64,000 nt of DNA. Source: an uncultured Candidatus Micrarchaeota archaeon (GTDB lineage Archaea > Micrarchaeota > Micrarchaeia > Micrarchaeales > Micrarchaeaceae). The stretch is taken from NCBI GenBank assembly GCA_963741095.1, contig CAVUGN010000002.1, positions 160,001-224,000 of the forward strand. The letters are read 5' to 3'. The notes under the pieces were generated by a model that worked only from the letters and a program-made list of their open reading frames with translations, made no database searches and was not told the origin of the DNA. Positions 3,683-48,811 of this stretch are shown here, piece by piece; within the stretch, counting starts at the first letter, position 1; every line of letters starts with the position of its first letter. The position numbers were made by a program, and so were the translations under genes.

Positions 3683-6445
3683 ATGGCAAAGCAAGGCGTC
3701 CGCGCCGGCCCTCCCAAAGCAGTTCAGAGCGAGCTGGTAAAGAGCATAATAAGGAAGCACCATCGGACTCCCATCTCCTTCTACAAGCTCAAGGACATGT
3801 CGCTGGACATCGTCTACAATCCCAACTTCCTCGACGCGGTGCTGCTGCTGATGGGCTTCATCGCGGTCAACATGGCATCGCCTTTCTACCCGGCGCTGCT
3901 GATGATCCCGCTCCTCATAATAATATTCGTCATGACGCTGCGCCACCCGTTCCTGGGATTGGTGGTGTTCATAGCGCTGATGTTCCCTGCGATAATGTTC
4001 GAGGTGCCCGCGCTCGCGTGGATCTTCATGTTCGTCATAAGCATGTCCCTCATATTCGGGTACATGCACTACCGGACTCTTGCCTTCGCGTACATACTCG
4101 TGCCGCTCGCCTTCTCACCGATGGGTTACTTCTTCGAGATACCCGTCTTCATAGCAGCAATACTGGTCATAGGATACAAACGGGCCGCGATCCTCGCGGG
4201 CATGCTCGTTCTGGCGATTGTGATGGTCTCGGGAGTCACGGGAGTGCAGAACACCGGCTACATAACCTACAATCCCAAGCCAGTACACTTGATGGTGATG
4301 AACAGCACCGCAGCGCCGTACCTATCGCCGAGCATGCATCCTCTCACGCTAATGAACTTCCTTCCCGGCTTCGCCACGGCCCTCTCTACATTCGTGAGCC
4401 AGGGCCCGATAAACGCGCTGCCGCAAACGTTCAACTACATGCTTGCCGCTCTCACCTTCCAGCCGCTGCTCTATCTCGTCGAGCTCGCCGGCCTGGTGGG
4501 CATCGCGTTCGTCATAGACATGCTTGCAGTGACGCTGCGGTCGAGCTTCAAGGGAGTCCGGTCCAGCCTGGTCGGCGTAGGCTACCCGATACTCTACATA
4601 CTCATATCCTTCATCTCGAAATCGGACTTCTCGCTCATCATGCCGCTGGTGAGCTTCGCGATAGCGCCCTGCACGCTGTACATACTGGAGCTCTACAACG
4701 TCAACATAGTGCAGGCGCTCGCGGTAAAGAAGCAGGACATACGCATGAAATTCGGCGAGGCATTCGAGGACCTGCAATCGGAGAACTTCTCCGGCACATT
4801 TGCCGAAATAGGCAATTACGAAGCGACAAAAAAGGAGCTGCACGACGCCGTGATAGCGCCGATAGAGGAGCGCGGCATAAGCAGGGCATACAACGTGAAA
4901 CCTGCCAAGGGCCTGCTGCTATTCGGGCCTCCCGGAACCGGAAAGACGATGCTGATGCGCGCCCTTGCCAACGACATCAAGGCGGGATTCTTCCTTGTCA
5001 AGGCCTCGAACCTCATATCCGCATTCCCCGGCGAGACCGAAAGGTCAATATCAAACATATTCGCGATCGCCAAGAAGAACGCCCCGGCAGTGCTGTTCTT
5101 CGACGAGATAGACGCTGTTGCAAAAAGCAGGGACCTCGAAGTCGACGAGACGCACAGGCAGGCGCTCTCGCAGCTGCTGGTCGAGCTCGACGGCTTCCAG
5201 AAGATAAGCAACGTGGTCGTAGTCGGAGCGACGAACGCGCCGCACCTGATAGACGCTGCGATAATGCGCCCGGGCAGGTTCGACAAGCTGATATACATGC
5301 CGCTGCCGGATTTCAACGGAAGGAAGGCGATATTCAAGATATACCTCAGCAAGCTCCCAGTGTCGAAGGACGTCGACCTGGGCGAGCTGGCCGAGAAGAC
5401 CGAAAGGTATTCGGGCGCCGACATAAAGGCGTTGACGGAGAACGTCGCGCAGATCATAGCGCAAGAGGCATCGAGCCAGCACAAGGTGCTCGAGATCAAT
5501 CAGGAAGACCTGCTGAACGCGATAAAGACGACCAAGCCTTCGACGTCGCTCGCGCAGCTCGAGGAATACAACAAGTTCAGGCTGGACTTCGAGAGGCGGT
5601 CGCTTTCTGAAGGGAAGGTCGAGAAGACCGAGCAGGTGGGGCTCGACGACGTGATAGGCCTGGAGGACGCGAAGAAGTCGATAGTAGAGGCGATACAGAT
5701 ACCGCTCATGCACCCTGACCTGATAAAGAGGTACGACATAAAGCCGATAAACGGGATGCTGCTCTTCGGCCCTCCCGGAACCGGAAAGACGATGCTGATG
5801 CGCGCCGTGAGCAACGAGATGAAGGGCGTGACCATACTCGAGCTTCGCGGGTCCGACATAGTGAATGCGGGCAAGGAGAACGCGATAGTGATGATAAGGA
5901 AGACCTTCGAACGGGCCATAGAGAACGTCCCATCCATAATATTCGTGGACGAGATAGACACCATGATACCCAAAAGGGAGGGGGCCACCGAAGCGGGTGC
6001 GCAAATCACCGGAGAGATGCTGGAGCAGATAGACGGCATAAAGAAGGCGACCGGCGTCGTCCTGATTGCCGCCACGAACAGGCCCGAGGCGCTTGACGCG
6101 GCCATACTCCGCGCAGGAAGGTTCGACAAGATGATATTCGTGAGGCCGCCCAACGCGGAAGAGAGAGCCTCGCTCTTCAGGATCTACCTGAAGAACGTGC
6201 CCGTAGCGAAAGACATCGATTTCGATAAACTCGGAGTGGAATCCGACGGATTCACCGGCGCAGACATAGCCAACGTCTGCAGGCAGGCGAAAACAAACGC
6301 GCTCGCAACCACCGTAAGGACGGGCGAAGAGATCCAGATATCCCACGACAACGTGGAATCGATACTGCGCAACCTCAGGCCTTCTGCACCGAGCCTCGTG
6401 GTCAGCGGCTACCTCACCTTCCTCGCAAGGTACGGCCAGAGATAA
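3683..6445 (+). CDS. polytopic membrane protein fused to tandem Cdc48/VCP-like AAA+ ATPase domains
   Basis: about 300 aa of hydrophobic helices, then two GPPGTGKT Walker A motifs, LFFDE/IFVDE Walker B motifs and ATN...GRFD SRH motifs. Confidence 0.9.
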   Translation: MAKQGVRAGPPKAVQSELVKSIIRKHHRTPISFYKLKDMSLDIVYNPNFLDAVLLLMGFIAVNMASPFYPALLMIPLLIIIFVMTLRHPFLGLVVFIALMFPAIMFEVPALAWIFMFVISMSLIFGYMHYRTLAFAYILVPLAFSPMGYFFEIPVFIAAILVIGYKRAAILAGMLVLAIVMVSGVTGVQNTGYITYNPKPVHLMVMNSTAAPYLSPSMHPLTLMNFLPGFATALSTFVSQGPINALPQTFNYMLAALTFQPLLYLVELAGLVGIAFVIDMLAVTLRSSFKGVRSSLVGVGYPILYILISFISKSDFSLIMPLVSFAIAPCTLYILELYNVNIVQALAVKKQDIRMKFGEAFEDLQSENFSGTFAEIGNYEATKKELHDAVIAPIEERGISRAYNVKPAKGLLLFGPPGTGKTMLMRALANDIKAGFFLVKASNLISAFPGETERSISNIFAIAKKNAPAVLFFDEIDAVAKSRDLEVDETHRQALSQLLVELDGFQKISNVVVVGATNAPHLIDAAIMRPGRFDKLIYMPLPDFNGRKAIFKIYLSKLPVSKDVDLGELAEKTERYSGADIKALTENVAQIIAQEASSQHKVLEINQEDLLNAIKTTKPSTSLAQLEEYNKFRLDFERRSLSEGKVEKTEQVGLDDVIGLEDAKKSIVEAIQIPLMHPDLIKRYDIKPINGMLLFGPPGTGKTMLMRAVSNEMKGVTILELRGSDIVNAGKENAIVMIRKTFERAIENVPSIIFVDEIDTMIPKREGATEAGAQITGEMLEQIDGIKKATGVVLIAATNRPEALDAAILRAGRFDKMIFVRPPNAEERASLFRIYLKNVPVAKDIDFDKLGVESDGFTGADIANVCRQAKTNALATTVRTGEEIQISHDNVESILRNLRPSAPSLVVSGYLTFLARYGQR

Positions 6446-20909: not shown

Positions 20910-22472
20910 ATGAAATTTGAGAACGAAGGAATAGGTGGAAGCCTCTCCCTTAGGATGTTCACCGTATTCTTATTCATCATTCTAGCGCTGAGCGGGGCCG
21001 CATTCGCGGTGTACATGCTAGTCACCTCATCTAACATAGTAACTCTTATGCTTGCGGTTGCATTCCTGATGCTCGCGATTGTGAGCGGATTCTTCAACGT
21101 GACCTCCGCGATGCTCTATTACAGGTCGTACTTCTACTACAAGCACATCAATGAGATAAGCTCCGGGCTGAAGCCGATGCGAAAATTCCCCACCGTAGCC
21201 ATGGTAGTTCCCGTGTACAACGAGGATGTAGAGATGGTGAAGAGGAATCTGCTACGCCTGAAGAGGATCAACTACCCAAAAGACAGGATCAAGTTCTACC
21301 TGCTTGATGACTCGACGAAAAAGGACACCATAGCATCGCTCCAGGAGTTCAGCGTCAAGAATGGAGTAACGTTCATGCACCGCGATGACAGGTCCGGCTT
21401 CAAGGCTGGTGCGCTCAACAACCTGCTGAAATCCTCGAAAGAGGAACTCATCGCGATATTCGACGCCGACGAGTACCTCACCGACAAGCGTTTCCTACTT
21501 GAGCTGGTTCCGTACTTTGCGGACAAGCAGCTCGGATATGTGCAAACGAGGAAGAGCAGCTTCAACGGCACCTTCTTCTCCGACTCTGTGAAACTTTTCG
21601 ACGATTTCTTCTACACCTTCATACAGCCGTCGCGCGCCTTCAACAACACCGCCATATTTGCGGGCTCGTGCGGTATAATAAAGCGCGAGGCATTGGACAA
21701 GGTCGGCGGCTTCCCGGAGTACGTAGTGGAGGACACCTTCTTCAGCTTCGAGGCGGACGTCAATAACTACAAGGGCCTGTACATACCGAAGATATATGCG
21801 TATGGCATGCCGATAACCACCTTCACCGCCCTGGCAAGGCAGCAATGGCGCTACAACTACGGCGACACGCAGTTCCTTGGCTATTTCTTCAACAAGGTCC
21901 TCAACAGAGAGGTCAAACTGGAATCGCGCATCTCGAAAGTGGACTACTTGACGCACGGTTTCGGCCTCAACTACCTCTCAGTAATGCTCGTGCTGATGAC
22001 TCTGGTATCCGTTCTCATCGTGTTCTCGAACTTTGCGTTCACGCACATGTCCGTGTCGCAGCTGTTCATGGCATGGAACATGCAGCAGTTCGTTGAGGTG
22101 TTCGGGTTCGTCGCGTTCATACTGTCGCTCATGGTGCCAGTCATATTGACCAAGGTGTACTTCAAGTCCATAAGCCGGGGCATGATGCTCTTCGTGCTAA
22201 ACTTCGCTCTCGCGATAGTCAGGTTCAAGGCCGCAATCGCCGCAGTTATCGGGATGAGCCCCGCCATGCACTGGCACAGGGCCAACGACCTCAGCAGGCA
22301 CAGCGCCAGCTTCTCGATATTCAACTCTCTGGCCGAGATATGTCTCTCCTCGGTGCTCATCGGAGCGGCATGCCTCGCGCTGTACCTCAACAACATCGCG
22401 GGCAGCATATGGCTCATCTGGTACGGCGTGATGTACATGGCGGCGACGGTGCTATTCTACAGGTATGGTTGA
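20910..22472 (+). CDS. processive membrane glycosyltransferase family 2 (cellulose synthase catalytic subunit-like)
   Basis: PVYNE, LLDDS, KAGALN, FDAD, VQT, GS, ED, QQWRY (QxxRW variant), multiple TM helices. Confidence 0.88.
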   Translation: MKFENEGIGGSLSLRMFTVFLFIILALSGAAFAVYMLVTSSNIVTLMLAVAFLMLAIVSGFFNVTSAMLYYRSYFYYKHINEISSGLKPMRKFPTVAMVVPVYNEDVEMVKRNLLRLKRINYPKDRIKFYLLDDSTKKDTIASLQEFSVKNGVTFMHRDDRSGFKAGALNNLLKSSKEELIAIFDADEYLTDKRFLLELVPYFADKQLGYVQTRKSSFNGTFFSDSVKLFDDFFYTFIQPSRAFNNTAIFAGSCGIIKREALDKVGGFPEYVVEDTFFSFEADVNNYKGLYIPKIYAYGMPITTFTALARQQWRYNYGDTQFLGYFFNKVLNREVKLESRISKVDYLTHGFGLNYLSVMLVLMTLVSVLIVFSNFAFTHMSVSQLFMAWNMQQFVEVFGFVAFILSLMVPVILTKVYFKSISRGMMLFVLNFALAIVRFKAAIAAVIGMSPAMHWHRANDLSRHSASFSIFNSLAEICLSSVLIGAACLALYLNNIAGSIWLIWYGVMYMAATVLFYRYG

Positions 22473-38831: not shown

Positions 38832-39986
38832 TCACGGCGCGGTATAACCGGTGTTCCAATTGGAGTTATAAGTCAAACTAGTTGCTATACCATTGTTGCC
38901 AATTCCGCTCGCGTCATTGGGGTTGTTGTTGAGCATCCACCAACCGACACTGTTTGCCTTATTTATCGGAGTACCGCTTATGCCTTCATCATAGAGTTCC
39001 AGTACCTGTGTTGGTGACAGTGCAATGTTGTACATCTGTACGTTCGCCATCTTGCCATTAAAGAGGCTCCCTTCGCTGCCCGCACCTATGTAAATAGGGC
39101 CTGCGGTGTTATACGTAAGCGCTCCGGCGCTGGTATACTGCTGCCCATTGATATACTCATAAGTCGCACTGGCAGTTGAAACCCCCACAACATGATACCA
39201 AACTCCGGGAGTGATCTGTACACCTGGCGGGCTGCCCGCAGTAACGCACCTTTGGCCAAATCTAATGTTAGTGTCTCCTCCATAGTAAAGGAAAAATGCC
39301 CAACCGCCGCAGCTGTTCTGTCCATTAGCATTCGTCTGTTGCATCGGTGCAACTGTGCTCCCACTGTATGCGTTTGTCTGCAACCAAAAACTTACTGTCA
39401 AGCCCTGGGTGATTGCAAGCGAAGGGGTAACTGGAATATTGATATAACTACTTGCACCGTTGAACTGCGCTACGTACTGCGGTAGCGTAGGTGCCTGCGC
39501 CTGGGTCGTGAAGCTGCCAGCAAAGCTGAACGAATTCCCTGACTTGCACGTCGTGTTGGATATGTTGCCCACGCCGTTGGCACAGTAGTTCGCTGTCACG
39601 TTGAAGATGCCGGTGTATATCGTTCCAATTCCGGCCTTGAACGGGAAGGGAGCAATGCATGTAATGGTGTTGCCCGGAAGCACCTCCGTGGGCGAACACG
39701 TGCCTATCACCGCGAAATTGTTTATCTTCGCGTTGAACGAGCCTATGCTGATGACGGCGGGCTGAGCGTCAGTGAGCGATATCTCCAGCACCGAATTTCC
39801 AGCGGTCTGGTACAACACGTCGACACAGCTGAAGCCGCTGAACGCAGAGCACTGGAAGGGCAGTGTCTTGGTCGGGATAGAGGAGAACGCGAAGAGAAGG
39901 AATATCACTATAGCTATGATGAGGAAGACGAAGGCGTACGTCGAGACGAACTCTATCGCCGACTGTGCCTTGCTGTTGCGGTGCAT
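38832..39986 (-). CDS. class III signal peptide pilin-like protein with C-terminal LamG/ConA-like lectin domain
   Basis: KAQSAIEF plus hydrophobic helix; FNGASSYI, TVSFW, WYHVVGV, YING, IYIG, FNG.MANVQMYN.ALS. Confidence 0.88.
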   Translation of the reverse strand: MHRNSKAQSAIEFVSTYAFVFLIIAIVIFLLFAFSSIPTKTLPFQCSAFSGFSCVDVLYQTAGNSVLEISLTDAQPAVISIGSFNAKINNFAVIGTCSPTEVLPGNTITCIAPFPFKAGIGTIYTGIFNVTANYCANGVGNISNTTCKSGNSFSFAGSFTTQAQAPTLPQYVAQFNGASSYINIPVTPSLAITQGLTVSFWLQTNAYSGSTVAPMQQTNANGQNSCGGWAFFLYYGGDTNIRFGQRCVTAGSPPGVQITPGVWYHVVGVSTASATYEYINGQQYTSAGALTYNTAGPIYIGAGSEGSLFNGKMANVQMYNIALSPTQVLELYDEGISGTPINKANSVGWWMLNNNPNDASGIGNNGIATSLTYNSNWNTGYTAP

Positions 39987-40036: not shown

Positions 40037-40843
40037 ATGGATTACGAAGAATACAAGGCTGCAGTCAAGGGCATCGTGGCCTCAAAAAGGCTGGGTCAGA
40101 GCTTTCTGATGGACAACAGCGTGGCCAAGGCCGAGGCTGAGTACGCAAGAAACAGAACAGTCATAGAGCTTGGGGCAGGCATGGGCGTGCTCACTGGCGA
40201 GCTTTGCAAGGTTGCCAAGAAGGTCATAGCCGTGGAGTACGACGAGCGCCTCTTCGAATTCCTCATCGAGAACGTCAAGAGCAAGAACCTCGAGCTCCTC
40301 AAGGGCGACTTCTTCGAGCTTCAAAGCAAGAAGTTCGAAGCCGCGGACATAATGGTCTCGAACATACCCTACAACCTATCTAGCAAGGTGCTGATGTGGC
40401 TTGCCGACCGCTCCCTACCCGCTGTGCTTTGCCTGCAGAAGGAATTCGTAGAGCACATGCTCGCAAAGCCGGACACGAAGAGCTATTCAAGATTGAGCGT
40501 CGTGTCGAATCTCAGCTTCCAGATGCACAGGCTGATGAGCGTGAGCCCGGACAAGTTCTATCCCCAGCCCAGGGTGACATCGGAGATAGTCTACCTTAGG
40601 CCGACGGGCAAGAAGATCAGCAAAAACGAGTCGGAGATGATAAACCTGCTGATGATGCACAAGAAGAAGAAGCTCAGGAACGCCGTGATAGACTCTGCGC
40701 ACGCGCTGAAGATGGAAAAGAGCCGCGCATCGGAGATAGCGGACGGCATGACGAATAAAGAGACGCGCCCGTTCCAGATGGAACCAGAGAAAATACTGGG
40801 CGCGGCTCGCGAGTTGAGGAAGCTGCTAAAGAAATCAGAATGA
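40037..40843 (+). CDS. rsmA: 16S rRNA adenine dimethyltransferase
   Basis: LGQSFL, IELGAG.G.LT, VSNIPY, QKEF, YSRLSV, F.P.P.V.S. Confidence 0.95.
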   Translation: MDYEEYKAAVKGIVASKRLGQSFLMDNSVAKAEAEYARNRTVIELGAGMGVLTGELCKVAKKVIAVEYDERLFEFLIENVKSKNLELLKGDFFELQSKKFEAADIMVSNIPYNLSSKVLMWLADRSLPAVLCLQKEFVEHMLAKPDTKSYSRLSVVSNLSFQMHRLMSVSPDKFYPQPRVTSEIVYLRPTGKKISKNESEMINLLMMHKKKKLRNAVIDSAHALKMEKSRASEIADGMTNKETRPFQMEPEKILGAARELRKLLKKSE

Positions 40844-41497
40844 GAAGGCCGGATTCTGCTCCTTCATTACGCGGCAGTTGGGAAGCTCCCGCATGAACTT
40901 GTCCTCCGCCCTTTTCGCGCCATCCTCGCCGAGCAGCCTCTTGTAATGCATCGGCACGAAGAACTTCGGCTTGATCGCCTTCACCGCCCTTATCGCATCG
41001 TCCTCGTCCATCGTGTACTTGCCTCCTACTGGCAGGAGCGCGGCGTAGATGTTTTTCAGGCTACTCATCTCCGGTATGAAGTCCGTGTCTCCCGCATGGT
41101 AGATTCTCATGCCTTCGACATCCACTATGTAGCCGACGCCCATCTTCGCCCGAGGGTGGAAGCTCTGCTTTTCTGCAGCAATGTTGTAGGCCGGCACGGC
41201 TTCGATGCCGATGCCGTGGAAGTCGGTCTTGAATCCGGGCTCTGCAACCTGCAGGTTCCTGTACTCGCCAGCATCCAGGCAGCCCGGAGCGGCTATTATC
41301 ATCGAATCCTTCTTCATGACTTTTGCTATGTCCTCCTTGCTGCAGTGGTCGAAGTGCGCATGGGTTATCAGCACAAGATCGGCGCGTCCTTTCACGGAAT
41401 CGGGCAGATGGTAAGGGTCTATGAATATGGCATAGCCCTTCGCCTTTATGCAGAAACTCGCATGGCCCAGATAAAAAAGGATGTCCTCAAGCTCCAT
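40835..41497 (-). CDS. MBL-fold metallohydrolase
   Basis: LGHASF, IDP, THAHFDH, YHAGDT, LPVGG.YTM, PMHY. Confidence 0.9.
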   Translation of the reverse strand: MELEDILFYLGHASFCIKAKGYAIFIDPYHLPDSVKGRADLVLITHAHFDHCSKEDIAKVMKKDSMIIAAPGCLDAGEYRNLQVAEPGFKTDFHGIGIEAVPAYNIAAEKQSFHPRAKMGVGYIVDVEGMRIYHAGDTDFIPEMSSLKNIYAALLPVGGKYTMDEDDAIRAVKAIKPKFFVPMHYKRLLGEDGAKRAEDKFMRELPNCRVMKEQNPAFSF

Positions 41498-41608
41498 CAA
41501 ACCACGCATCACATTCGGCGCCGCAAAAGAAATAACTTTCTCCTCTCCTGCGCACATCGCAAGGGATAAATATATTGGGAGCGTTGTAGAGAGCAAGGGG
41601 GTGCACGG

Positions 41609-44600
41609 ATGAAGAACCTTTTGCGCATTTCGTTCTTTCTGCTGCTATCGCTGCTGGCCCTGTCATCGGTTTCAAAGATTTCCGTGGCTGCACCGGGAAT
41701 AATGGTGCCCTACTACATAGACCTGTCAAATTCGGCATCGCTCAATGAGCTTATCTCGGCGCACACCAGCAATCCCTCCGTGCCCATGATAGTCATAGTC
41801 AATCTGGGCAATCCTGGCGGCCCAGGCACCTCATCAAGCCCAACATCCCTTTCGGCAATACAGCAGATGCAGAATTCCGGCATAACGGTCGTGGGGTACG
41901 TTGACACGGACTACGGCGCGATATCCCAAAGCACGGAAGAGACCGAGATGCAGGAATGGAAAAGCTGGTACGGCGTGACCGGCATATTCTTCGATGAGAT
42001 GGCTGCCAGCTCGGGCTATGAAACATATTACACCACGCTGACGTCATACGCAAAATCCACACTTGGAATGTCCCTTACGATAGGAAACCCCGGCGGACCC
42101 ACACAGTCGAGCTACGTTCATACGGTCGACATCATAACAATATACGAATCTCCAGGCATGCCGAGCACCGGCAGTCTCAACACCTTCGGCGATCCCGCCA
42201 GCAACTTTGCACTCATCGCCTACGGCGTCCCTTCAGCGCCTTCCGCTTCAACACTCAGCAGCTACTCACCGTACGTTAGCTACCTGTATGTCACAGATGC
42301 GAGCGGCGGCAATCCCTACGACGTACTGCCCTCATATTTTTCATCAGAAGTTGCGGCGCTCAACACTGGCGGCGCCACCACCACGTCCACATCCTCTAGT
42401 TCATCATCCTCAACAATCGCGACCAATCCCTGCACCACATGCGAGGACAACTGCCTGGCTGGCTGCGGCAGCGACATCGGCTGCGCCACCAACTGCGGCG
42501 GAGGCGCCGGCGAAACGTGCTATGCTGCTTGCAGCAGCGGCACCACCGCTCCCACAACCACGATTCCAACCGATCCATGCACCGCCTGCGAAGACAATTG
42601 CCTGTCGGGCTGCGGCAGCAACATCGGTTGCGCTACAAACTGCGGCGGCGGCCCGGGCGAGACGTGTTATAATGCCTGCGGCACCACAACCGTGCCCACA
42701 ACCACTATTCCAACCGATTCATGCACCGCCTGCGAGGACAACTGCCTTGCGGACTGCGGCAGCGACCTTGGTTGTGCTGCGAGTTGCGGTGGCAGCTTCG
42801 GCGAGACGTGCTATGTCGCCTGTGGCAGCACTGTAACTTCGATCCCTACAACAACCATTCCCCAGGGCCAGTCTGGAACATGCGTCGGCGGCGATCCTAC
42901 CAGCCCCTGCACCTTCCTCGACGCTGTGGAATCATCCACCACCTACGATGGGGCTGGAGGGGGAACGATAGTGCAATTGCCTCCAAACACAAATCCGAGC
43001 CCGTTGCCGATAATAAGCGAGGTCCTGCAGCAGAACGCGCAGGACGCCCAATTCCTCCTGACCTGCCCCAACAACCCAGATGCTTCGCAGACGTTGGAGT
43101 ACCTCACCTCGGATCTGCCCGGCCAGACGTCCTACATAATGGGCGACAAATGCCTCGCCGAAAGCGCGCCGCTTCAGACATCGGTCGCGCGGCAGATAGT
43201 GGTCTCATGGTCCGGCTATGTGCCCGCGAGCTCGACCGCATCGGTCGCGTTTGACAATCTCGCCATCGGGGCGGTGAGCAATCTGGCCTATTCCGGCGGC
43301 TCCGATACGAACGGGAACAGAAACTACAATCTATCAAACGGTTATGACTCTGCTTCGTACATATCCGGCCAGGTGCCAGCCAGCCCGCAGTACGGCATCT
43401 GGACATGGAATGCGGAGTACGCCAACTTAGCGGCTGTAAATGCGGGCCTGTCTGCTCTCCAGACTCCGGACGCACTGACGAACCTTCAGATACTCGACAT
43501 CAACCAGCACCAGTTCTCCGGAAATCCGTTGTACTGCAAGAGCACGCTCGAATACACCTCTCCATGCGGCGCAACGACCACAAGCACATCAAGCATCGGC
43601 TCCACCACGACGACCTCCTCCACCTATGGTCCCTGCGGTGAATACAGCGTATCCTACATAGATCCCACCACGGGGGAGATAACCTGCGTGAGCGGCCATA
43701 CTACCGCTCCGTTGCCGGTGAGGCAGTACCAACCGGTCAACTCTGTCGCGCCAGCTTCGGTCAACGCCTCGAACCTCCACACACCGAAAACAATGGCTAA
43801 CGTGGGCGACGATTCTGGCGGTGGGGATTGTGTCAGTGATGCCGTTCCAGATTGCGGTGGGAATCCATACTACGTGCGCAGTCTGGTCCCGACAAACTAC
43901 TACTGGAGTTGCAGCTATCTTTACAACTATCAGGTGAACGCGGAGGTCAGCAACCTCGGCAACACCCAGATACCTGTGCCGGTGCAGACCGCCACGCTGC
44001 CGCAAAAGCCCTACCTGCTCATGAACAACTTCCCCTACGGCGGTTTCGTCGAACAAAGTCTGCCAGGCTCTTGCTCGGATCTGGATCTCTTCCACGGAAC
44101 TCCCTGCGACGACTGGACCAAAATATCGAGCTCGGCCACCCTTTATCTGGCGAACGGCAAAAAGTACGGGGTGAACGTCTATGTCGATCCCGCGGATCCA
44201 AGCAACTACTGGACAGTCTATTCGACCAGCTGGTTCGGCTATATCGGCTTCAGCCTCCATACCGGGTTCGTCCCGATCACAAGCCTGACGTACAAATCCG
44301 TGGGTGCGCTGCCCTACCTGCTGTACAACATATCCATGCCCGCGGAAATCGGTGCAATCAACAACAGAGAGGAATACCTCAATCTGTCGTACGACATCTA
44401 CAGCCCGCACAACTATCTCGACCCGGCAAATTACCTAGAACCGTTGCCATTGTCGACGGATTCCGGCTTATTTGCGGCGTACAAGAGTGGCAGTGCAACC
44501 GATCTTGGCATCTTCCCGTCAAACATGCTATCGCTCTCGAATCCGTACGTGGCGGGCCTGGACGAGGCTGTGACCAGCTTCCTGAGCTCGATTATCAACC

Positions 44601-47600
44601 TGCCTGCCGGCCTTTCGTCCTTGGCCATCTTCGGCTCAAATGTCAGGGTGGGCAACTATTACACCGGCGTACTGGCAAACCCGATATACCTGTCGGCGGC
44701 GCCGAACGATTACATATACGCGCTGACGTCCGCAGAGCCCTGCACGTTCTGGATACTCGGCTGCAACCAGCACATATACCTCTACACCATGCGCTTCATA
44801 CCCGCGGGCGACCTTAACCTGACGAACAACCAGCCGAACGCGCTAGGCCCCATAACCTGCGCAGATTCCTCGACCTGCCCCGATGCCTGGAATGCCCTGT
44901 GGACCAGTTCATCCGGCTACTGGGCAAACTCGCTCCGCGAGCAGTCGCAGAACCTCTACGTGACGAACGTTTACCCGATCAGCTCCACCGGCTCATCGTT
45001 CTGGGCGAGCGGCAACTGGCAGCATGATGCCGCAAACAACAATCCATCCATAGCGCCGACGGCGGTCACGACCGATTATGACGATGACCTGTTCATGCTC
45101 GGCTGCGACAACGGCAGCTGCAGCAACTTCAAGTTCGCGGAAATGATTCCGGGCGCCGGAGGAGGCAATTACATATACGATGCCGGCCAAACGCCGGCCG
45201 GTTTCAAGGCCACCGGCGAGCTCGCCGCAGACCCGGACGGGCAGTACGTGTACGTCGCCGGCGAGAACTACGGCAACGTCCTAGTGTACGGCACGCCACC
45301 GAATTCAAACTTCATCTATCTGTCGAGCGTGCCGCTGTCGTTTTCAAATCCAGCCTACAATTTCAACGTGGTGTCCTATCTAGCCAGCGGCGGCCCGTTC
45401 GGCAACGCGCTCATCGCCAGCGCCTACTCCAACATTGCCGGGGTCAACGACGTCTCGTCAAACCACCACCCCCTGGCCATAAGCGAGTATGACGGTTTCC
45501 TGTACGTCCTTGACAATTGGACATTCAAAGTGCCAGTAAACGTGAACGGCGCACTGGAGGAGATGAGCTCTGCGATACTGCTAGTGAGAGCCTTCACCGA
45601 AAACGGCATGGAGGTGCCGATAGACGGATCATCAATGAATTATCTGGTTCCGGCATTCGGGGGCGCGGTAAGCACCACGACCGGCGTATCTGTGCCACAG
45701 GGAGGTTGGGCTCCGTACGGATGGCCTATCTCCGCGAACATAATGGTCACTCCCTTTGCGCCCGATGGCGGCGCCGTACCGACCCACATATCCTACTGCG
45801 CGGCAGGCTGCACCTACTCGCCGAACACGATAAGCACGGGCTATCCGCCGATAGGTCCTGCCATAAGCGAGGATGGGCGCATCGCGGAGTCCGGCAAAAA
45901 TGCGGACCTCGGCTTTTCCACGGACTTCAACGGCACTTCATACATGATAGCGCACGACTACAACTGGGTTGACGGCGTTCCAGGCGTCTCGACCTGCTCT
46001 TCCTGTTCGTCGTCGTACACCGAATTGCTGTCGTTCAAACTCAACCTGCTCAACTACACGACGCTGTCGTACGGGGCCAATTCGCCATACACCTGCTACA
46101 TCGGCGGCAACACCGTCGTGTATCCTAGCACGCCATGCACCTACGACACCACCAGCAACATAGTGGACATATACGCGCCCATACTCGGCGTGCCCAGCTC
46201 ATTCGACTATGTCGAGAGCGAGGGGTCGCCGCAGCAGTTCACTTCGATCACCGGCCTGCTCACTTCAAGCGTGCCCGGCGGCGTCGACACCAGCCAGTAT
46301 AGCGGCAAGGCCACGCAGCAGCCCATCACCGCTTCCTGCGTCGACGGCACCACCGGCGAGAGCACAGGCACGCCCCTATGCGCCAGGAGCAGCGAAACTC
46401 CGGCCTGCGCCAGCTCCACAACCCTGTCCTGCACCTCTGGCGGAACGCCCACCTGCCCCTCCGGGGCTCCAACCTGCACCGATGTGACCACCAACATATT
46501 CTGCTCGAACGGGGACCAGGGCGCGGTTCCGACCTGCGCCGATTTAAGCAACCCCACCTGCGTTTCAACCGGCGGATCCACCAACAAGCCGGAATGCGCG
46601 GACAAAAGCGCGCCACTCTGCACCCCGACTGATCCCAACCAGCCCCTGGGGACTGCGGAGTGCAGCACCCAGGTGCAGCCCCTTTGCCCCGACGGCACCA
46701 CCCTTCCATCGTGCAACACGGAAACTGATCCGTCCAACGCGCCGCAGTGCAACACCGGCCTGCAGGTCCAGTGCCCATCCGGCCTGAGCGCGACGCCATG
46801 CGCTTCGCCTGGCAGCGCGCCGACCTGCCTGTCCCTCAACACCCTGCCCCCTCCGCCCGGCGGCACCGGCGTCTCCGCGATCATGAACACCTATGTCAAC
46901 AGCGTGATAACCGGCTACCTTCTAGTGCCTTACCACTACACCTACCAGATGTGGCAGCAGTGGTCCCCAGATCCGATTCCAACAGGGTCCGTGTACTCCT
47001 CGTACAGCTTCAACCCGGGCGATGACGTGATGGTAAACGGTGCCCTTCCGGGAGACGATTTCTCTGGCACGCTGTGCCCACCGTTCACGCTCCCGCCCCC
47101 TGTGCCCGCACCCAACGCAGGGGTAGCGACCCTGACTGATCAAGCCAATACCATCTACACGATGAACCAGGTCAACATGCAGAGCAACTACCTGCAGGAC
47201 GACATACAGGGTGGGGACACCTACCTGCAACTTGGTGAGCTCTCGCAGATCAACCAGGCCTATTACACCTCAAATCTTTCCGATGCTGGGACGGTCACGT
47301 ATCCGGACCTAAGCTACAACATATTCACCAACAGGTGGTACGGGGAGATGTTCGTAAACCAGACCATCGGCCCACAGAATTTTGTGCCGGTGGTGCTTGC
47401 CGGCGCACAGGTCATGAACGCGGTGCAGACCGACAACTACTGGCTTGAAGACTACGTGCAGCAGGAAGCAAACGGCCAGACCTTCCCTGCCTATGCGGCC
47501 CAGGATGTCCTGCCTTTGGCAAGCCCGAAAATAGGCGCGGACTGCGGAGGCACGGGATGCCCGGCTAACTACTACTACGATCCCCTGCTTTCTCCCCTGT

Positions 47601-48811
47601 CCAGCGCGCTCACCTACGCAAATTCGATGCAGCCCAGCATCATACCAGTCTTCCAGCTCTTCGCCCAGTCGTCGTACCTCTACGGCCTCGACCTCGACCT
47701 GAGCCTGAATCCGAACATCTACGGCTACAACCGGCTCGTCTACACCTTTGTCGACAGCTTCAACAACATCATAACCGCGCCGCTCGACGCAGACCTCGCC
47801 AACATAGCCACAGTCACCGCCTCGGTGCAGACGACGACCAATCCGCTCAACGCGAACGAGACCAACGTCATAGTCTCGGGCACCGCGATGTACACGCTGC
47901 CCTCCGGGATGCAGCCCCTGCCTGCCGGTTCGCCGATATACCTCTACTACGACACCAACATCAACTTTTACAACAGCATAGTCAGCCCAGCAGACTCCGA
48001 TCCGACGAACTACTACCAGTATTCGCTCCAGTGCGCCTTCTCCACAAGCCTACAGGCCTGCCAGTTAGCCAATCCGCTATCGACATTGACGCAGCCTGCC
48101 GGCGCCACAAACCCGAAGACCTTCGGCCCAATCGAAGCCAACGTGATCACCTTCCAGACCCAGTACGATTACAACGCAGTCGACTACCGGGCGGGCAACC
48201 CGCTGGCCGGCACCACTGTGCCCCAATGCGCTGCGACGCCAAGCAGCCTCCTGGACCTGCCGGCCTGCCTGCTGAACAGGGCCAAATGCGAGTGCAACAT
48301 CAACGGCGACTACGGCCTGGATCCGATACGGTCCGACCCCTACAATGCCAAACTTGACGAGTACTGCGAGCCAGTGTACGACGACGGCAACGGCATCTTC
48401 ACCTCGCAGATAGGGCTTGTCGCGATCGCCAACACGCTGCCTGACGGCACGTTCAACGCCGTCTTCGACACCTGCGGCTCCGGCACGCCCTCGATAGTTG
48501 CACAGTACTACGGCTACCCGCCGCCAGAGCCGCTGCCTGTCTTCCAGCCCTCGCTGCCCTACTCGGCCAACGCCTTCCTCTTCGAAGTGCCGCCCTCCGG
48601 CTTCGTGACCTCGAACGAATTCAACTACGCGTACTCTCCTGCCTCGCAGTCGGCATCCTTCAACATAGGCAGCTACGCCCTGCCGTTCGGCGACGTGGAC
48701 CCGGCAGCGCTCATGCTTGCAGCGTTGGCGCTGCTGATCATATCCTACGCAAAGCGCGCCACGCAAAAACCCTCCGGAAAGGCGCAAACGGACGATGTGA
48801 ACAAGGATTAA
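41609..48811 (+). CDS. giant 2400-aa membrane-anchored surface protein with N-terminal spherulin-4 (GH135-like) domain, Cys-rich repeats and probable beta-propeller region
   Basis: signal peptide; VPYY, IVN...GPG, VVGYVDT, GIFFDE, IGNPG, TIYE; C-terminal TM helix with basic tail. Confidence 0.85.
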   Translation: MKNLLRISFFLLLSLLALSSVSKISVAAPGIMVPYYIDLSNSASLNELISAHTSNPSVPMIVIVNLGNPGGPGTSSSPTSLSAIQQMQNSGITVVGYVDTDYGAISQSTEETEMQEWKSWYGVTGIFFDEMAASSGYETYYTTLTSYAKSTLGMSLTIGNPGGPTQSSYVHTVDIITIYESPGMPSTGSLNTFGDPASNFALIAYGVPSAPSASTLSSYSPYVSYLYVTDASGGNPYDVLPSYFSSEVAALNTGGATTTSTSSSSSSSTIATNPCTTCEDNCLAGCGSDIGCATNCGGGAGETCYAACSSGTTAPTTTIPTDPCTACEDNCLSGCGSNIGCATNCGGGPGETCYNACGTTTVPTTTIPTDSCTACEDNCLADCGSDLGCAASCGGSFGETCYVACGSTVTSIPTTTIPQGQSGTCVGGDPTSPCTFLDAVESSTTYDGAGGGTIVQLPPNTNPSPLPIISEVLQQNAQDAQFLLTCPNNPDASQTLEYLTSDLPGQTSYIMGDKCLAESAPLQTSVARQIVVSWSGYVPASSTASVAFDNLAIGAVSNLAYSGGSDTNGNRNYNLSNGYDSASYISGQVPASPQYGIWTWNAEYANLAAVNAGLSALQTPDALTNLQILDINQHQFSGNPLYCKSTLEYTSPCGATTTSTSSIGSTTTTSSTYGPCGEYSVSYIDPTTGEITCVSGHTTAPLPVRQYQPVNSVAPASVNASNLHTPKTMANVGDDSGGGDCVSDAVPDCGGNPYYVRSLVPTNYYWSCSYLYNYQVNAEVSNLGNTQIPVPVQTATLPQKPYLLMNNFPYGGFVEQSLPGSCSDLDLFHGTPCDDWTKISSSATLYLANGKKYGVNVYVDPADPSNYWTVYSTSWFGYIGFSLHTGFVPITSLTYKSVGALPYLLYNISMPAEIGAINNREEYLNLSYDIYSPHNYLDPANYLEPLPLSTDSGLFAAYKSGSATDLGIFPSNMLSLSNPYVAGLDEAVTSFLSSIINLPAGLSSLAIFGSNVRVGNYYTGVLANPIYLSAAPNDYIYALTSAEPCTFWILGCNQHIYLYTMRFIPAGDLNLTNNQPNALGPITCADSSTCPDAWNALWTSSSGYWANSLREQSQNLYVTNVYPISSTGSSFWASGNWQHDAANNNPSIAPTAVTTDYDDDLFMLGCDNGSCSNFKFAEMIPGAGGGNYIYDAGQTPAGFKATGELAADPDGQYVYVAGENYGNVLVYGTPPNSNFIYLSSVPLSFSNPAYNFNVVSYLASGGPFGNALIASAYSNIAGVNDVSSNHHPLAISEYDGFLYVLDNWTFKVPVNVNGALEEMSSAILLVRAFTENGMEVPIDGSSMNYLVPAFGGAVSTTTGVSVPQGGWAPYGWPISANIMVTPFAPDGGAVPTHISYCAAGCTYSPNTISTGYPPIGPAISEDGRIAESGKNADLGFSTDFNGTSYMIAHDYNWVDGVPGVSTCSSCSSSYTELLSFKLNLLNYTTLSYGANSPYTCYIGGNTVVYPSTPCTYDTTSNIVDIYAPILGVPSSFDYVESEGSPQQFTSITGLLTSSVPGGVDTSQYSGKATQQPITASCVDGTTGESTGTPLCARSSETPACASSTTLSCTSGGTPTCPSGAPTCTDVTTNIFCSNGDQGAVPTCADLSNPTCVSTGGSTNKPECADKSAPLCTPTDPNQPLGTAECSTQVQPLCPDGTTLPSCNTETDPSNAPQCNTGLQVQCPSGLSATPCASPGSAPTCLSLNTLPPPPGGTGVSAIMNTYVNSVITGYLLVPYHYTYQMWQQWSPDPIPTGSVYSSYSFNPGDDVMVNGALPGDDFSGTLCPPFTLPPPVPAPNAGVATLTDQANTIYTMNQVNMQSNYLQDDIQGGDTYLQLGELSQINQAYYTSNLSDAGTVTYPDLSYNIFTNRWYGEMFVNQTIGPQNFVPVVLAGAQVMNAVQTDNYWLEDYVQQEANGQTFPAYAAQDVLPLASPKIGADCGGTGCPANYYYDPLLSPLSSALTYANSMQPSIIPVFQLFAQSSYLYGLDLDLSLNPNIYGYNRLVYTFVDSFNNIITAPLDADLANIATVTASVQTTTNPLNANETNVIVSGTAMYTLPSGMQPLPAGSPIYLYYDTNINFYNSIVSPADSDPTNYYQYSLQCAFSTSLQACQLANPLSTLTQPAGATNPKTFGPIEANVITFQTQYDYNAVDYRAGNPLAGTTVPQCAATPSSLLDLPACLLNRAKCECNINGDYGLDPIRSDPYNAKLDEYCEPVYDDGNGIFTSQIGLVAIANTLPDGTFNAVFDTCGSGTPSIVAQYYGYPPPEPLPVFQPSLPYSANAFLFEVPPSGFVTSNEFNYAYSPASQSASFNIGSYALPFGDVDPAALMLAALALLIISYAKRATQKPSGKAQTDDVNKD
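42431..42823 (+). repeat. three tandem 8-Cys repeats (period 147/144 nt) within the giant protein
   Basis: C-x2-C-x3-C-x3-C-x5-C-x3-C-x7-C-x3-C units starting at 42431, 42578 and 42722, joined by PTTTIPT linkers. Confidence 0.95.

Follow-up and report, generated by a model that had tools for sequence, protein, structure and literature searches.

A GH135/Spherulin4-type barrel at the head of a giant surface protein built on a conserved three-block scaffold in a Micrarchaeota genome

What does an archaeon with a genome of about one megabase do with a surface protein of 2400 amino acids (aa) that begins with a glycosidase-type domain? The question is raised by a single open reading frame (ORF) at positions 41609–48811 (+) of a 64,000-nucleotide stretch of an uncultured Candidatus Micrarchaeota archaeon (assembly GCA_963741095.1, contig CAVUGN010000002.1, positions 160,001–224,000); this whole stretch is referred to below as the window. 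An initial annotation, made from the letters alone, had described a giant surface protein tipped with a spherulin-4-like glycosidase of glycoside hydrolase family 135 (GH135) and had proposed it as a candidate host-attachment and matrix-degrading appendage. The molecular means by which DPANN archaea recognise, hold, and breach their hosts are largely unknown, and there are few candidates with a testable biochemical prediction. The translation confirmed one continuous frame of 2400 aa without an internal stop. As judged from sequence comparison and structure modelling, its mature N-terminus is a GH135 barrel with an apparently intact catalytic centre, and the remainder belongs to a protein family conserved in one order of Micrarchaeota.

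The N-terminal domain, termed the head here, comprises 235 residues (aa 28–262, window 41690–42394; all features of the protein lie on the + strand). It follows a putative signal peptide, MKNLLRISFFLLLSLLALSSVSKISVA, at aa 1–27 (41609–41689), which has hydrophobic windows at aa 3–27 and shows a basic n-region and an h-region in the translation. The Pfam model PF12138 (Spherulin4) matched the head at aa 31–250 with an E-value of 5.2e-35 and 121.5 bits (cut-off 30.2), spanning profile positions 2–238 of 239; the score in the genome-level search was 127.5 bits. It was the sole Pfam match on the whole protein, the body of ~1990 aa having none, and NCBIfam models matched neither the whole protein nor the head alone. 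The motifs VVGYVDT, GIFFDE, IGNPG, and TIYE are all present. Sph3 of Aspergillus clavatus (5c5g, 5d6t) was found by phmmer at E ~2e-6, and in this alignment GIFFDE falls on the GIFFDE of Sph3 and the Glu of TIYE on the Glu of its 'vvfE' stretch. Asp129 (GIFFDE) and Glu180 (TIYE) would be the counterparts of Sph3 Asp166 and Glu222, with the numbering deduced from a chain offset of 50 and the Sph3 residue numbers taken from secondary sources. The D166A variant of Sph3 is catalytically inactive (bioRxiv 10.1101/113696), and the Asp and Glu222 are listed as nucleophile and acid/base, in print as 'Asp196/Glu222' (PMC12054363). In an alignment of the head with 54 relatives (55 sequences), Asp129, Asn160, Tyr97, and Thr100 were invariant and Glu180 was kept in at least 90%.

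For aa 28–262, AlphaFold2 gave a model with a predicted local distance difference test score (pLDDT) of 94.8 and a predicted template modelling score of 0.91, with alternating strands and helices. When it was compared with the PDB by Foldseek, 5c5g ranked first (E 4.3e-14, template modelling score 0.85/0.79, root mean square deviation 2.6 Å over 250 columns); the runners-up reached 0.55–0.59, and none exceeded 0.59. Profile, model, and fold searches, all of them checks that the initial annotation had proposed, agree with its assignment to spherulin-4/GH135: the head models as a GH135 (beta/alpha)8 barrel with Sph3 as the best solved match, and the GIFFDE Asp and the later Glu are retained and aligned with the Sph3 pair.

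In protein searches, the nearest relatives of the head were stand-alone Spherulin4 proteins of 240–400 aa with 45–50% identity. Relatives were encoded by 172 stretches in reference genomes, the best being those of Nitrosotalea and other Thaumarchaeota (44–51% identity), followed by Polyangia and other bacteria; the top identity in the tree alignment was 52% over 173 columns. A quick tree built from 80 domains put the window's domain inside no supported small clade and thus points to no donor of the head. Spherulin4 was detected in 4 of the 201 genomes of a phylum sample, the window's genome included. In genome G092 it is located at aa ~652–907 of a 1745-aa Ig/PKD-type protein (P0034), in G024 near the C-terminus of a 1984-aa protein, and in the sister genome G085 it constitutes a 300-aa membrane-anchored protein (P0035, L007:3155–4057, +). 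In the same tree the G092 and G024 domains paired on long branches, and that of G085 was placed among Thaumarchaeota. Neither of the two large proteins shares anything with the scaffold that carries the window's head, and in a collection of 5.8 billion clusters only three more proteins of 1320–4200 aa (P0244–P0246) matched the head, none of them with the scaffold. GH135 on surface proteins recurs sporadically in the phylum, on differing carriers. P0035 reads IFLDRM where the family reads IFFDEM, an Arg replacing the Glu beside the catalytic Asp. Among the papers listed by a literature search, none linked DPANN archaea with spherulin or GH135.

Behind the head and a Ser/Thr linker, aa 274–412 (42428–42844) consist of three tandem 8-Cys mini-domains with Thr/Pro linkers between them. 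Their Cys residues span aa 275–308, 324–357, and 372–405, and the spacing is identical in the three units (C-x2-C-x3-C-x3-C-x5-C-x3-C-x7-C-x3-C). Elsewhere in the genome no ORF of 100 aa or more has this pattern, and among the other proteins collected it was present in the database fragment P0002 alone. The body that follows consists of block A (aa 420–630, 42866–43498), a Ser/Thr-rich linker that forms the A–B junction (aa 635–762, 43511–43894), block B (aa 765–1560, 43901–46288), a Cys/Thr/Pro-rich linker or 'stalk' (aa 1577–1740, 46337–46828), and the membrane-proximal block C (aa 1745–2353, 46841–48667). The stalk contains 18 Cys, roughly one every 8–12 residues, and is not conserved in homologues. 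The three blocks are conserved in the family. Lys and Arg account for 47 of the 2400 residues (2.0%) against a genome median of 13.1% among 1197 six-frame ORFs of at least 200 aa, only 17 of which are at or below 2.6%. The scarcity of Lys and Arg had already been pointed out in the initial annotation, and its description of the sequence was accurate in every item checked (signal, head, repeats, blades, Cys-rich linker, and transmembrane helix). N-glycosylation sequons (N-x-S/T) are also scarce, about three times rarer than the composition predicts (12 observed vs. 32.3 ± 4.9 expected; none of 2000 shuffles was as low). The two closest homologues are likewise sequon-poor (12 vs. 26.5 and 16 vs. 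25.3 expected), and more distant homologues are not.

A search with the whole-length protein returned 32 proteins of 1386–3228 aa, and local BLAST resolved three common blocks, A at aa ~420–630, B at ~765–1560, and C at ~1745–2390. Exhaustive HMMER search of 1.84 billion proteins with aa 413–1600 as the query yielded 137 cluster representatives at E ≤1e-3, of which 82 were at ≤1e-30. The members are 1200–4050 aa long, and 99 of 155 contain all three blocks in the same order. The stretches around the blocks are variable in these 155 members: 0–1406 aa before A, 3–823 aa between A and B, and 26–598 aa between B and C. With block C as the query, the family was found in 74 of the 201 genomes of the phylum sample, this genome included. 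With the window's own genome excluded, the matches fell in two families of one order, 45 of 55 genomes in one and 28 of 36 in the other (73/91 together; the tally includes the unpublished genome G029), and none of the 110 genomes sampled from 23 other families had any. There is mostly one scaffold locus per genome, and no scaffold paralogue was found in the window's own genome. All six genomes of one genus (g6) lacked the scaffold. The three-block family has no Pfam model, and we did not find it described in the titles and abstracts listed by a literature search on giant surface proteins and host attachment of DPANN archaea.

None of the 156 family members matched a Spherulin4 hidden Markov model built from an alignment, with both positive controls found. 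In the closest homologue, P0003 (1972 aa, 58% identity), a signal peptide of its own is followed by the alignable part, which begins at aa 413, just where the Cys repeats behind the head have ended. Because of these two results we regard the head as a lineage-specific addition to a conserved body. The initial annotation had considered the N-terminal module an exchangeable tip on a scaffold and had suggested collecting homologues and comparing their N-terminal regions. This comparison showed no GH135 in any other member and a variable N-terminal stretch. The notion of a tip is borne out by the headless nearest homologue and by the 0–1406 aa before block A; it does not extend to the recognisable enzymes of other members, which are located elsewhere, at the A–B junction. 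In a Pfam scan that covered 70 of the 156 members, lytic-enzyme domains were found in six, all within the A–B gap: Phage_lysozyme2 in P0030, NlpC/P60 in P0031, SLT_3 in P0032, P0189, and P0199, and SLT in P0195. Other inserted modules were PKD (P0016, P0017, and P0022), K319L-like PKD (P0146), LamG (P0125), and InlB-type B-repeats (P0136 and P0143). The scaffold has at least two insertion sites, and at the N-terminal one a recognisable enzyme was seen in the window's protein alone.

The lytic inserts are of the peptidoglycan type (phage-tail lysozyme, NlpC/P60, SLT, and SLT_3). The cultured hosts of Micrarchaeota named in the cited literature, Thermoplasmatales and Metallosphaera, have no murein, however, which raises the question of what the inserts cut.

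The body from aa 413 to 1600 was modelled with AlphaFold2 from a 40-sequence alignment (mean pLDDT 68.6). Blocks A and B were mostly at 65–93 (block A taken separately, mostly 64–91), and values below 50 were obtained for the A–B linker (model positions 223–350) and the start of the Cys-rich linker. The C-terminal part of block B (aa ~951–1531, 44459–46201) forms a six-bladed beta-propeller with large insertions, of the TolB, YWTD, NHL, or YVTN-like kind; this region holds the 'blade' motifs, and six-bladed TolB, YWTD, and NHL propellers ranked highest in VIA-align. With the family profile, the surface layer protein of Methanosarcina mazei (1L0Q) was matched at its YVTN propeller, in three stretches and with E 1.5e-8. 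The propeller-like blades recognised in the initial annotation are thus supported by profile and fold. Foldseek with the whole model of aa 413–1600 returned propeller matches alone, with template modelling scores of 0.30–0.46 on the target.

The C-terminal end is also conserved. Block C is followed by the pre-helix motif GSYALPFG (48668–48691; family consensus IG-S-Y-x-L-S-F-G), a transmembrane helix at aa ~2365–2381 (48701–48751), and a short basic tail of 19 aa with five Lys/Arg (aa 2382–2400, 48752–48811 with the stop). The helix is apparent in hydropathy windows and has the same position in homologues, in agreement with the proposed C-terminal anchor. In 77 of 156 sequences, the query included, the helix and basic tail come immediately after a G-S/N-Y-x-L-S-F-G motif; many of the rest are fragments. 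Two members have a DnaJ (J) domain after the helix (P0145, aa 2122–2174; P0146, aa 2875–2926), past a conserved stretch ending in GSIFELF, and are thus giant surface proteins with a cytoplasmic co-chaperone domain. Because of this position of the DnaJ domain, we consider the scaffold's C-terminal end cytoplasmic.

Sortase or exosortase signals are built in this way, from a motif, a helix, and a basic tail. The genome encodes a 514-aa exosortase-family protein (C5:198287–199831, +; PF09721, E 8e-22; TIGR04178, 46.6 bits vs. cut-off 23), and a 500–545-aa form of this enzyme is widespread in the two scaffold-bearing families (48 of 55 and 35 of 36 genomes), a tally that includes the unpublished genomes G029 and G197 and in which related genomes are not independent. 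The genus g6 lacks both this enzyme form and the scaffold (0/6 each). On the opposite side, the sortase was present with no scaffold match in 12 genomes and the reverse was true of one, and P0145 and P0146 have a cytoplasmic DnaJ domain after the helix. The LSFG motif was in none of the genome's 46 ORFs with a C-terminal helix and basic tail, and no NCBIfam model of the PGF-CTERM or PEP-CTERM type matched, the motif being LPFG/LSFG and not PGF or PEP. That the C-terminus serves as an exosortase signal is therefore a tentative suggestion, which we would sooner doubt than accept.

Taken further, these data could be combined in the view that the scaffold is a lineage-wide 'host-surface tool holder' with swappable enzymes that cut envelope or matrix, together with a dedicated one-substrate archaeosortase system; we consider this speculative and rather improbable. 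In such a view, the protein would be a usually single-copy appendage of one Micrarchaeota order with insertion sites at the N-terminus and the A–B junction, and the enzyme inserted would mirror the surface chemistry of the host, which is equally doubtful. Its further element, recognition of the GSYxLSFG-helix-basic C-terminus as a signal by the co-distributed 500–545-aa exosortase-like enzyme, is likewise speculative and not very probable.

As for the window's own protein, we incline, by a small degree, to a hydrolase directed at a host or a matrix and carried on the scaffold. It would be a type I cell-surface protein with the N-terminus outside and the C-terminal helix as the anchor, the body running from block A through the linker, block B with its six-bladed propeller, the Cys-rich linker, and block C to the GSYxLSFG motif, the helix, and the basic tail. 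In this lineage the body would have gained an Sph3-type GH135 barrel at the mature N-terminus, followed by three disulfide-type 8-Cys spacers. Because the barrel keeps the catalytic Asp/Glu pair, the head is predicted to be an active retaining endo-alpha-1,4-N-acetylgalactosaminidase or to have a closely related activity. From its place on the scaffold, the head would cleave an exopolysaccharide or glycocalyx rich in N-acetylgalactosamine (GalNAc) and keep hold of it as long as it is bound; this material would not be made by the cell itself and would come from the host or the surrounding biofilm. A path to the host membrane could thereby be cleared or the matrix loosened. The data show the architecture, the fold, the retained catalytic residues, the conservation of the scaffold, and the restriction of the head to this lineage; we infer the activity, substrate, distal display, and biological target.

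The foreign origin of the polymer is plausible, with three points in its favour. In one report, Micrarchaeum harzensis is described as unable to synthesise carbohydrates and Micrarchaeota as host-dependent for sugars (10.1101/2021.04.28.441871). In the same system, the matrix of the Thermoplasmatales host binds the GalNAc lectins RPA and SSA, and the host expresses the UDP-GalNAc pathway (PMC8975820). Finally, no GH114 enzyme and no deacetylase of carbohydrate esterase family 4 (CE4), the partner enzymes of galactosaminogalactan- or Pel-type pathways, were found in the 94%-complete genome of the window's archaeon.

Several observations weigh against a host- or matrix-directed hydrolase. The head is only ~20% identical to Sph3, and the specificity of GH135 is known from very few enzymes (PMC12054363). 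Sph3 itself works in the biosynthesis of its producer's own polymer, not in attack. A synthase-like glycosyltransferase of family 2 (GT2), akin to cellulose synthase and PgaC, is encoded 20 kb upstream, and the cell may make its own polysaccharide. The lectin data come from an acid-mine culture and the sequencing runs with the gene are soil metagenomes, so that they serve as an analogy only. The first place in the sequence is no proof of a distal place in space. The folds of blocks A and C are unassigned, the ESM Atlas having given no usable match (scores ≤0.79); missing fold matches for these blocks and for aa 763–950 are not evidence of new folds.

Some of these observations suit another role, in which the head would act in cis like Aspergillus Sph3, trimming or releasing the Micrarchaeon's own exported polysaccharide or glycan as an enzyme of biosynthesis or remodelling tethered near its own surface. 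Sph3 is membrane-bound and needed for galactosaminogalactan synthesis (PMC12054363), and a small membrane-anchored GH135 protein, P0035, occurs in the sister genome G085. The GT2 of the window (20910–22472, +) is a 520-aa processive enzyme akin to cellulose synthase BcsA and to PgaC (E 5.5e-39 and 1.4e-17, far below the equivalog cut-offs), and its sequence suggests that this reduced genome may make its own beta-linked exopolysaccharide. However, its gene is unlinked at a distance of 20 kb, and GT2 synthases akin to cellulose synthase and PgaC make beta-linked polymers, whereas GH135 cuts alpha-1,4-GalNAc. Further points against action in cis are the missing GH114 or CE4 partner, the headless orthologous scaffolds of 73 other genomes, and the inability to synthesise carbohydrates reported for M. 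harzensis (10.1101/2021.04.28.441871). We consider a role in cis unlikely.

The head could also be mainly a lectin-like carbohydrate-binding module for adhesion, its hydrolysis being irrelevant or very slow. One study reports that inactive Sph3 D166A still binds galactosaminogalactan and that active Sph3 binds Pel without degrading it (10.1101/113696). The six-bladed propeller of the scaffold is a ligand-binding type of fold, the other giant proteins of the genome, described below, include LamG, PA14, Ig-like, REJ, and Kelch domains, and the small G085 homologue has Asp-Arg instead of Asp-Glu in its FFDE motif. Still, the head has kept both catalytic residues and the invariant Asn160, and it shows no decay relative to stand-alone enzymes at 45–50% identity. 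A mainly adhesive role is quite unlikely on this evidence.

With the head as an incidental passenger, the scaffold itself could be mainly a structural part of the envelope, an S-layer-like subunit or an S-layer anchor. It is usually encoded at one locus per genome and occurs in 73 of the 91 genomes of two families; its profile matches the Methanosarcina surface layer protein 1L0Q, and its C-terminus, with the motif, the helix, and the basic tail, is strongly conserved. The S-layer protein known from the phylum is SLP_Mh of 'Ca. Micrarchaeum harzensis' A_DKE, which has a size of 101 kDa and an S_layer_N domain (PF05123), with homologues reported in 38 of 49 Micrarchaeota genomes (10.1101/2021.04.28.441871). 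PF05123 was absent from the 2400-aa protein (Pfam, E up to 1) and was not found in its genome at E up to 0.01, the genome being 94% complete; the latter result is a point in favour of the structural reading. With no PF05123 and a size unlike that of SLP_Mh, the 2400-aa protein is not the published Micrarchaeota S-layer protein, nor did we meet it as any already characterised one, a possibility that the initial annotation had itself raised. Lengths of 1200–4050 aa and modules swapped at three sites would be unusual for lattice subunits, and 6 of the 70 members scanned carry lytic inserts. A mainly structural role is distinctly unlikely as an alternative; it is compatible with a hydrolase on a scaffold, the two not being mutually exclusive.

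The ORF at 3683–6445 (+) of the window was considered as an S-layer gene and rejected, since a membrane domain and a pair of Walker-A motifs can be read from the translation. With 920 aa, a multi-helix hydrophobic N-terminal half, and two GPPGTGKT motifs, it probably encodes a membrane-embedded double AAA ATPase.

That the fusion is an assembly artefact, in which a GH135 gene was misjoined to a scaffold gene, is extremely improbable: the three near-identical 150-nt repeats are a possible source of misassembly and P0002 begins within repeat 3, but the reading frame is unbroken across head and scaffold, contigs bridge both junctions with 0 mismatches, and P0002 (100% identical to aa 363–1814) independently connects repeat 3 with the scaffold. 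The contigs, obtained from public runs, were aligned to window 40800–44300. The gene start was bridged without mismatch by X1 record 3 (41269–42138), the head-to-repeat junction by X2 record 11 (42125–42863), X1 record 4, and X5 record 27 (42291–42520), and the repeat-to-scaffold junction by X1 record 6 (42722–43417). X5 record 27 comes from a second study, which contributed one run, and the other bridging contigs come from three runs of the first. The first study is possibly the source of the assembly and then not independent of it; the second study and P0002 are partly independent.

The genome is archaeal, 1.08 Mb in 11 contigs, and 94% complete. Named homologues of the protein carry the labels Micrarchaeota, Micrarchaeia, or Micrarchaeaceae, apart from two rows that read Marsarchaeota, and the neighbouring genes are archaeal (S24e, Rpb7-type), which agrees with the DPANN cell assumed in the initial annotation. 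Four runs of one study, labelled soil metagenome, contained at least 67% of the gene's sampled words, and smaller shares were found in pond and lake runs. There was no RNA run among the 12 runs listed for the gene, which says nothing on its expression. The flanks offer no operon context: they include a tRNA synthetase, an inositol monophosphatase, a pilin-like LamG protein, KsgA, a metallo-beta-lactamase-fold protein, and S24e. The LamG protein (38832–39986, −; 384 aa), 1.6 kb upstream, begins like an archaeal prepilin, with KAQSAIEF ahead of a hydrophobic helix, and contains a LamG domain (PF13385, E 7.6e-23).

The 2400-aa protein is one of seven ORFs of 1484–2978 aa with 1.1–2.6% Lys plus Arg, which add up to 16,420 aa and take 4.6% of the genome. 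The six others (C1:118411–127347, C4:29425–37368, C5:151985–159802, C2:11163–18554, C2:35645–41137, and C11:2–4456) are of the adhesin type, with REJ, five LamG, ten Big_3_5 together with PA14, and Ig_7/Big_1 or Kelch domains; one has no Pfam match.

With its named catalytic residues, the 235-aa head is a defined and testable biochemical prediction on GalNAc polymers, and orthologous scaffolds that are headless or carry other lytic domains are natural controls. Should the enzyme track the host envelope, the family could be used to read the host type from genomes of uncultured Micrarchaeota. GH135 enzymes have, to our knowledge, been characterised only in fungi; the present protein extends the family to archaeal surface proteins, beside the stand-alone copies of acid-soil Thaumarchaeota. 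Were the head no more than an ordinary matrix glycosidase, the architecture would still be new and well documented, and the conserved protein family would be new as well.

The closest biochemical counterpart is Sph3 (CAZy GH135; PDB 5C5G and 5D6T), a retaining endo-alpha-1,4-N-acetylgalactosaminidase that works in galactosaminogalactan biosynthesis. It shares with the head the Pfam family, the fold (template modelling score 0.85), the aligned Asp/Glu pair, and a membrane-tethered, extracytoplasmic position. Sph3, however, is a small single-domain fungal enzyme from a biosynthetic cluster, whereas the window's domain is ~20% identical to it and part of a 2400-aa archaeal protein with no such cluster nearby. 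The stand-alone Spherulin4 proteins of acid-soil Thaumarchaeota (Nitrosotalea and Gagatemarchaeaceae) and of Polyangia have the conserved residues in common with the head; they are free proteins of 240–400 aa, whereas the window's domain heads a giant scaffold. The secreted GH135 copies of Gagatemarchaeaceae have been discussed as possible degraders of fungal walls (PMC10640624).

For the body, 1L0Q of M. mazei (YVTN propeller and PKD) is the only solved structure clearly found by the family profile and is likewise an archaeal cell-surface propeller, but the match covers few blades, and the rest of the 2400-aa protein has no counterpart there. SLP_Mh is comparable in belonging to the envelope of a Micrarchaeota archaeon and in having a signal-like region at its N-terminus; it differs in its 101 kDa and PF05123 from the ~2400 aa without PF05123 found here. 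A closer parallel at the level of the genome is 'Ca. Mancarchaeum acidiphilum' Mia14, a member of the same phylum with a genome of ~1 Mb, a few giant secreted proteins that take up a notable share of it, and propeller and LamG modules. In the accessible text of its description, four surface proteins make up 2.5% of the genome, the large strain-specific surface proteins contain PKD, YVTN/Kelch propeller, and CARDB domains, LamG proteins are expanded, and neither a glycosidase head nor a three-block family is reported (PMC5498576). The 384-aa prepilin-like protein upstream of the present gene is of the same kind as the pilin-like members of that LamG expansion.

The SPEARE proteins of Nanohaloarchaeota are also giant DPANN surface proteins that combine adhesion and enzyme domains; they belong to another phylum and have other domains. 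Hamm and colleagues reportedly described them in 2019 with protease and nuclease domains and proposed the host envelope as their target. The kinds of protein involved, namely GH135 enzymes, giant surface proteins of Micrarchaeota, and giant surface proteins of DPANN archaea that bear enzymes, are all known, and the new elements are the fusion found in this window, the three-block family as such, and its role as a carrier of different lytic domains.

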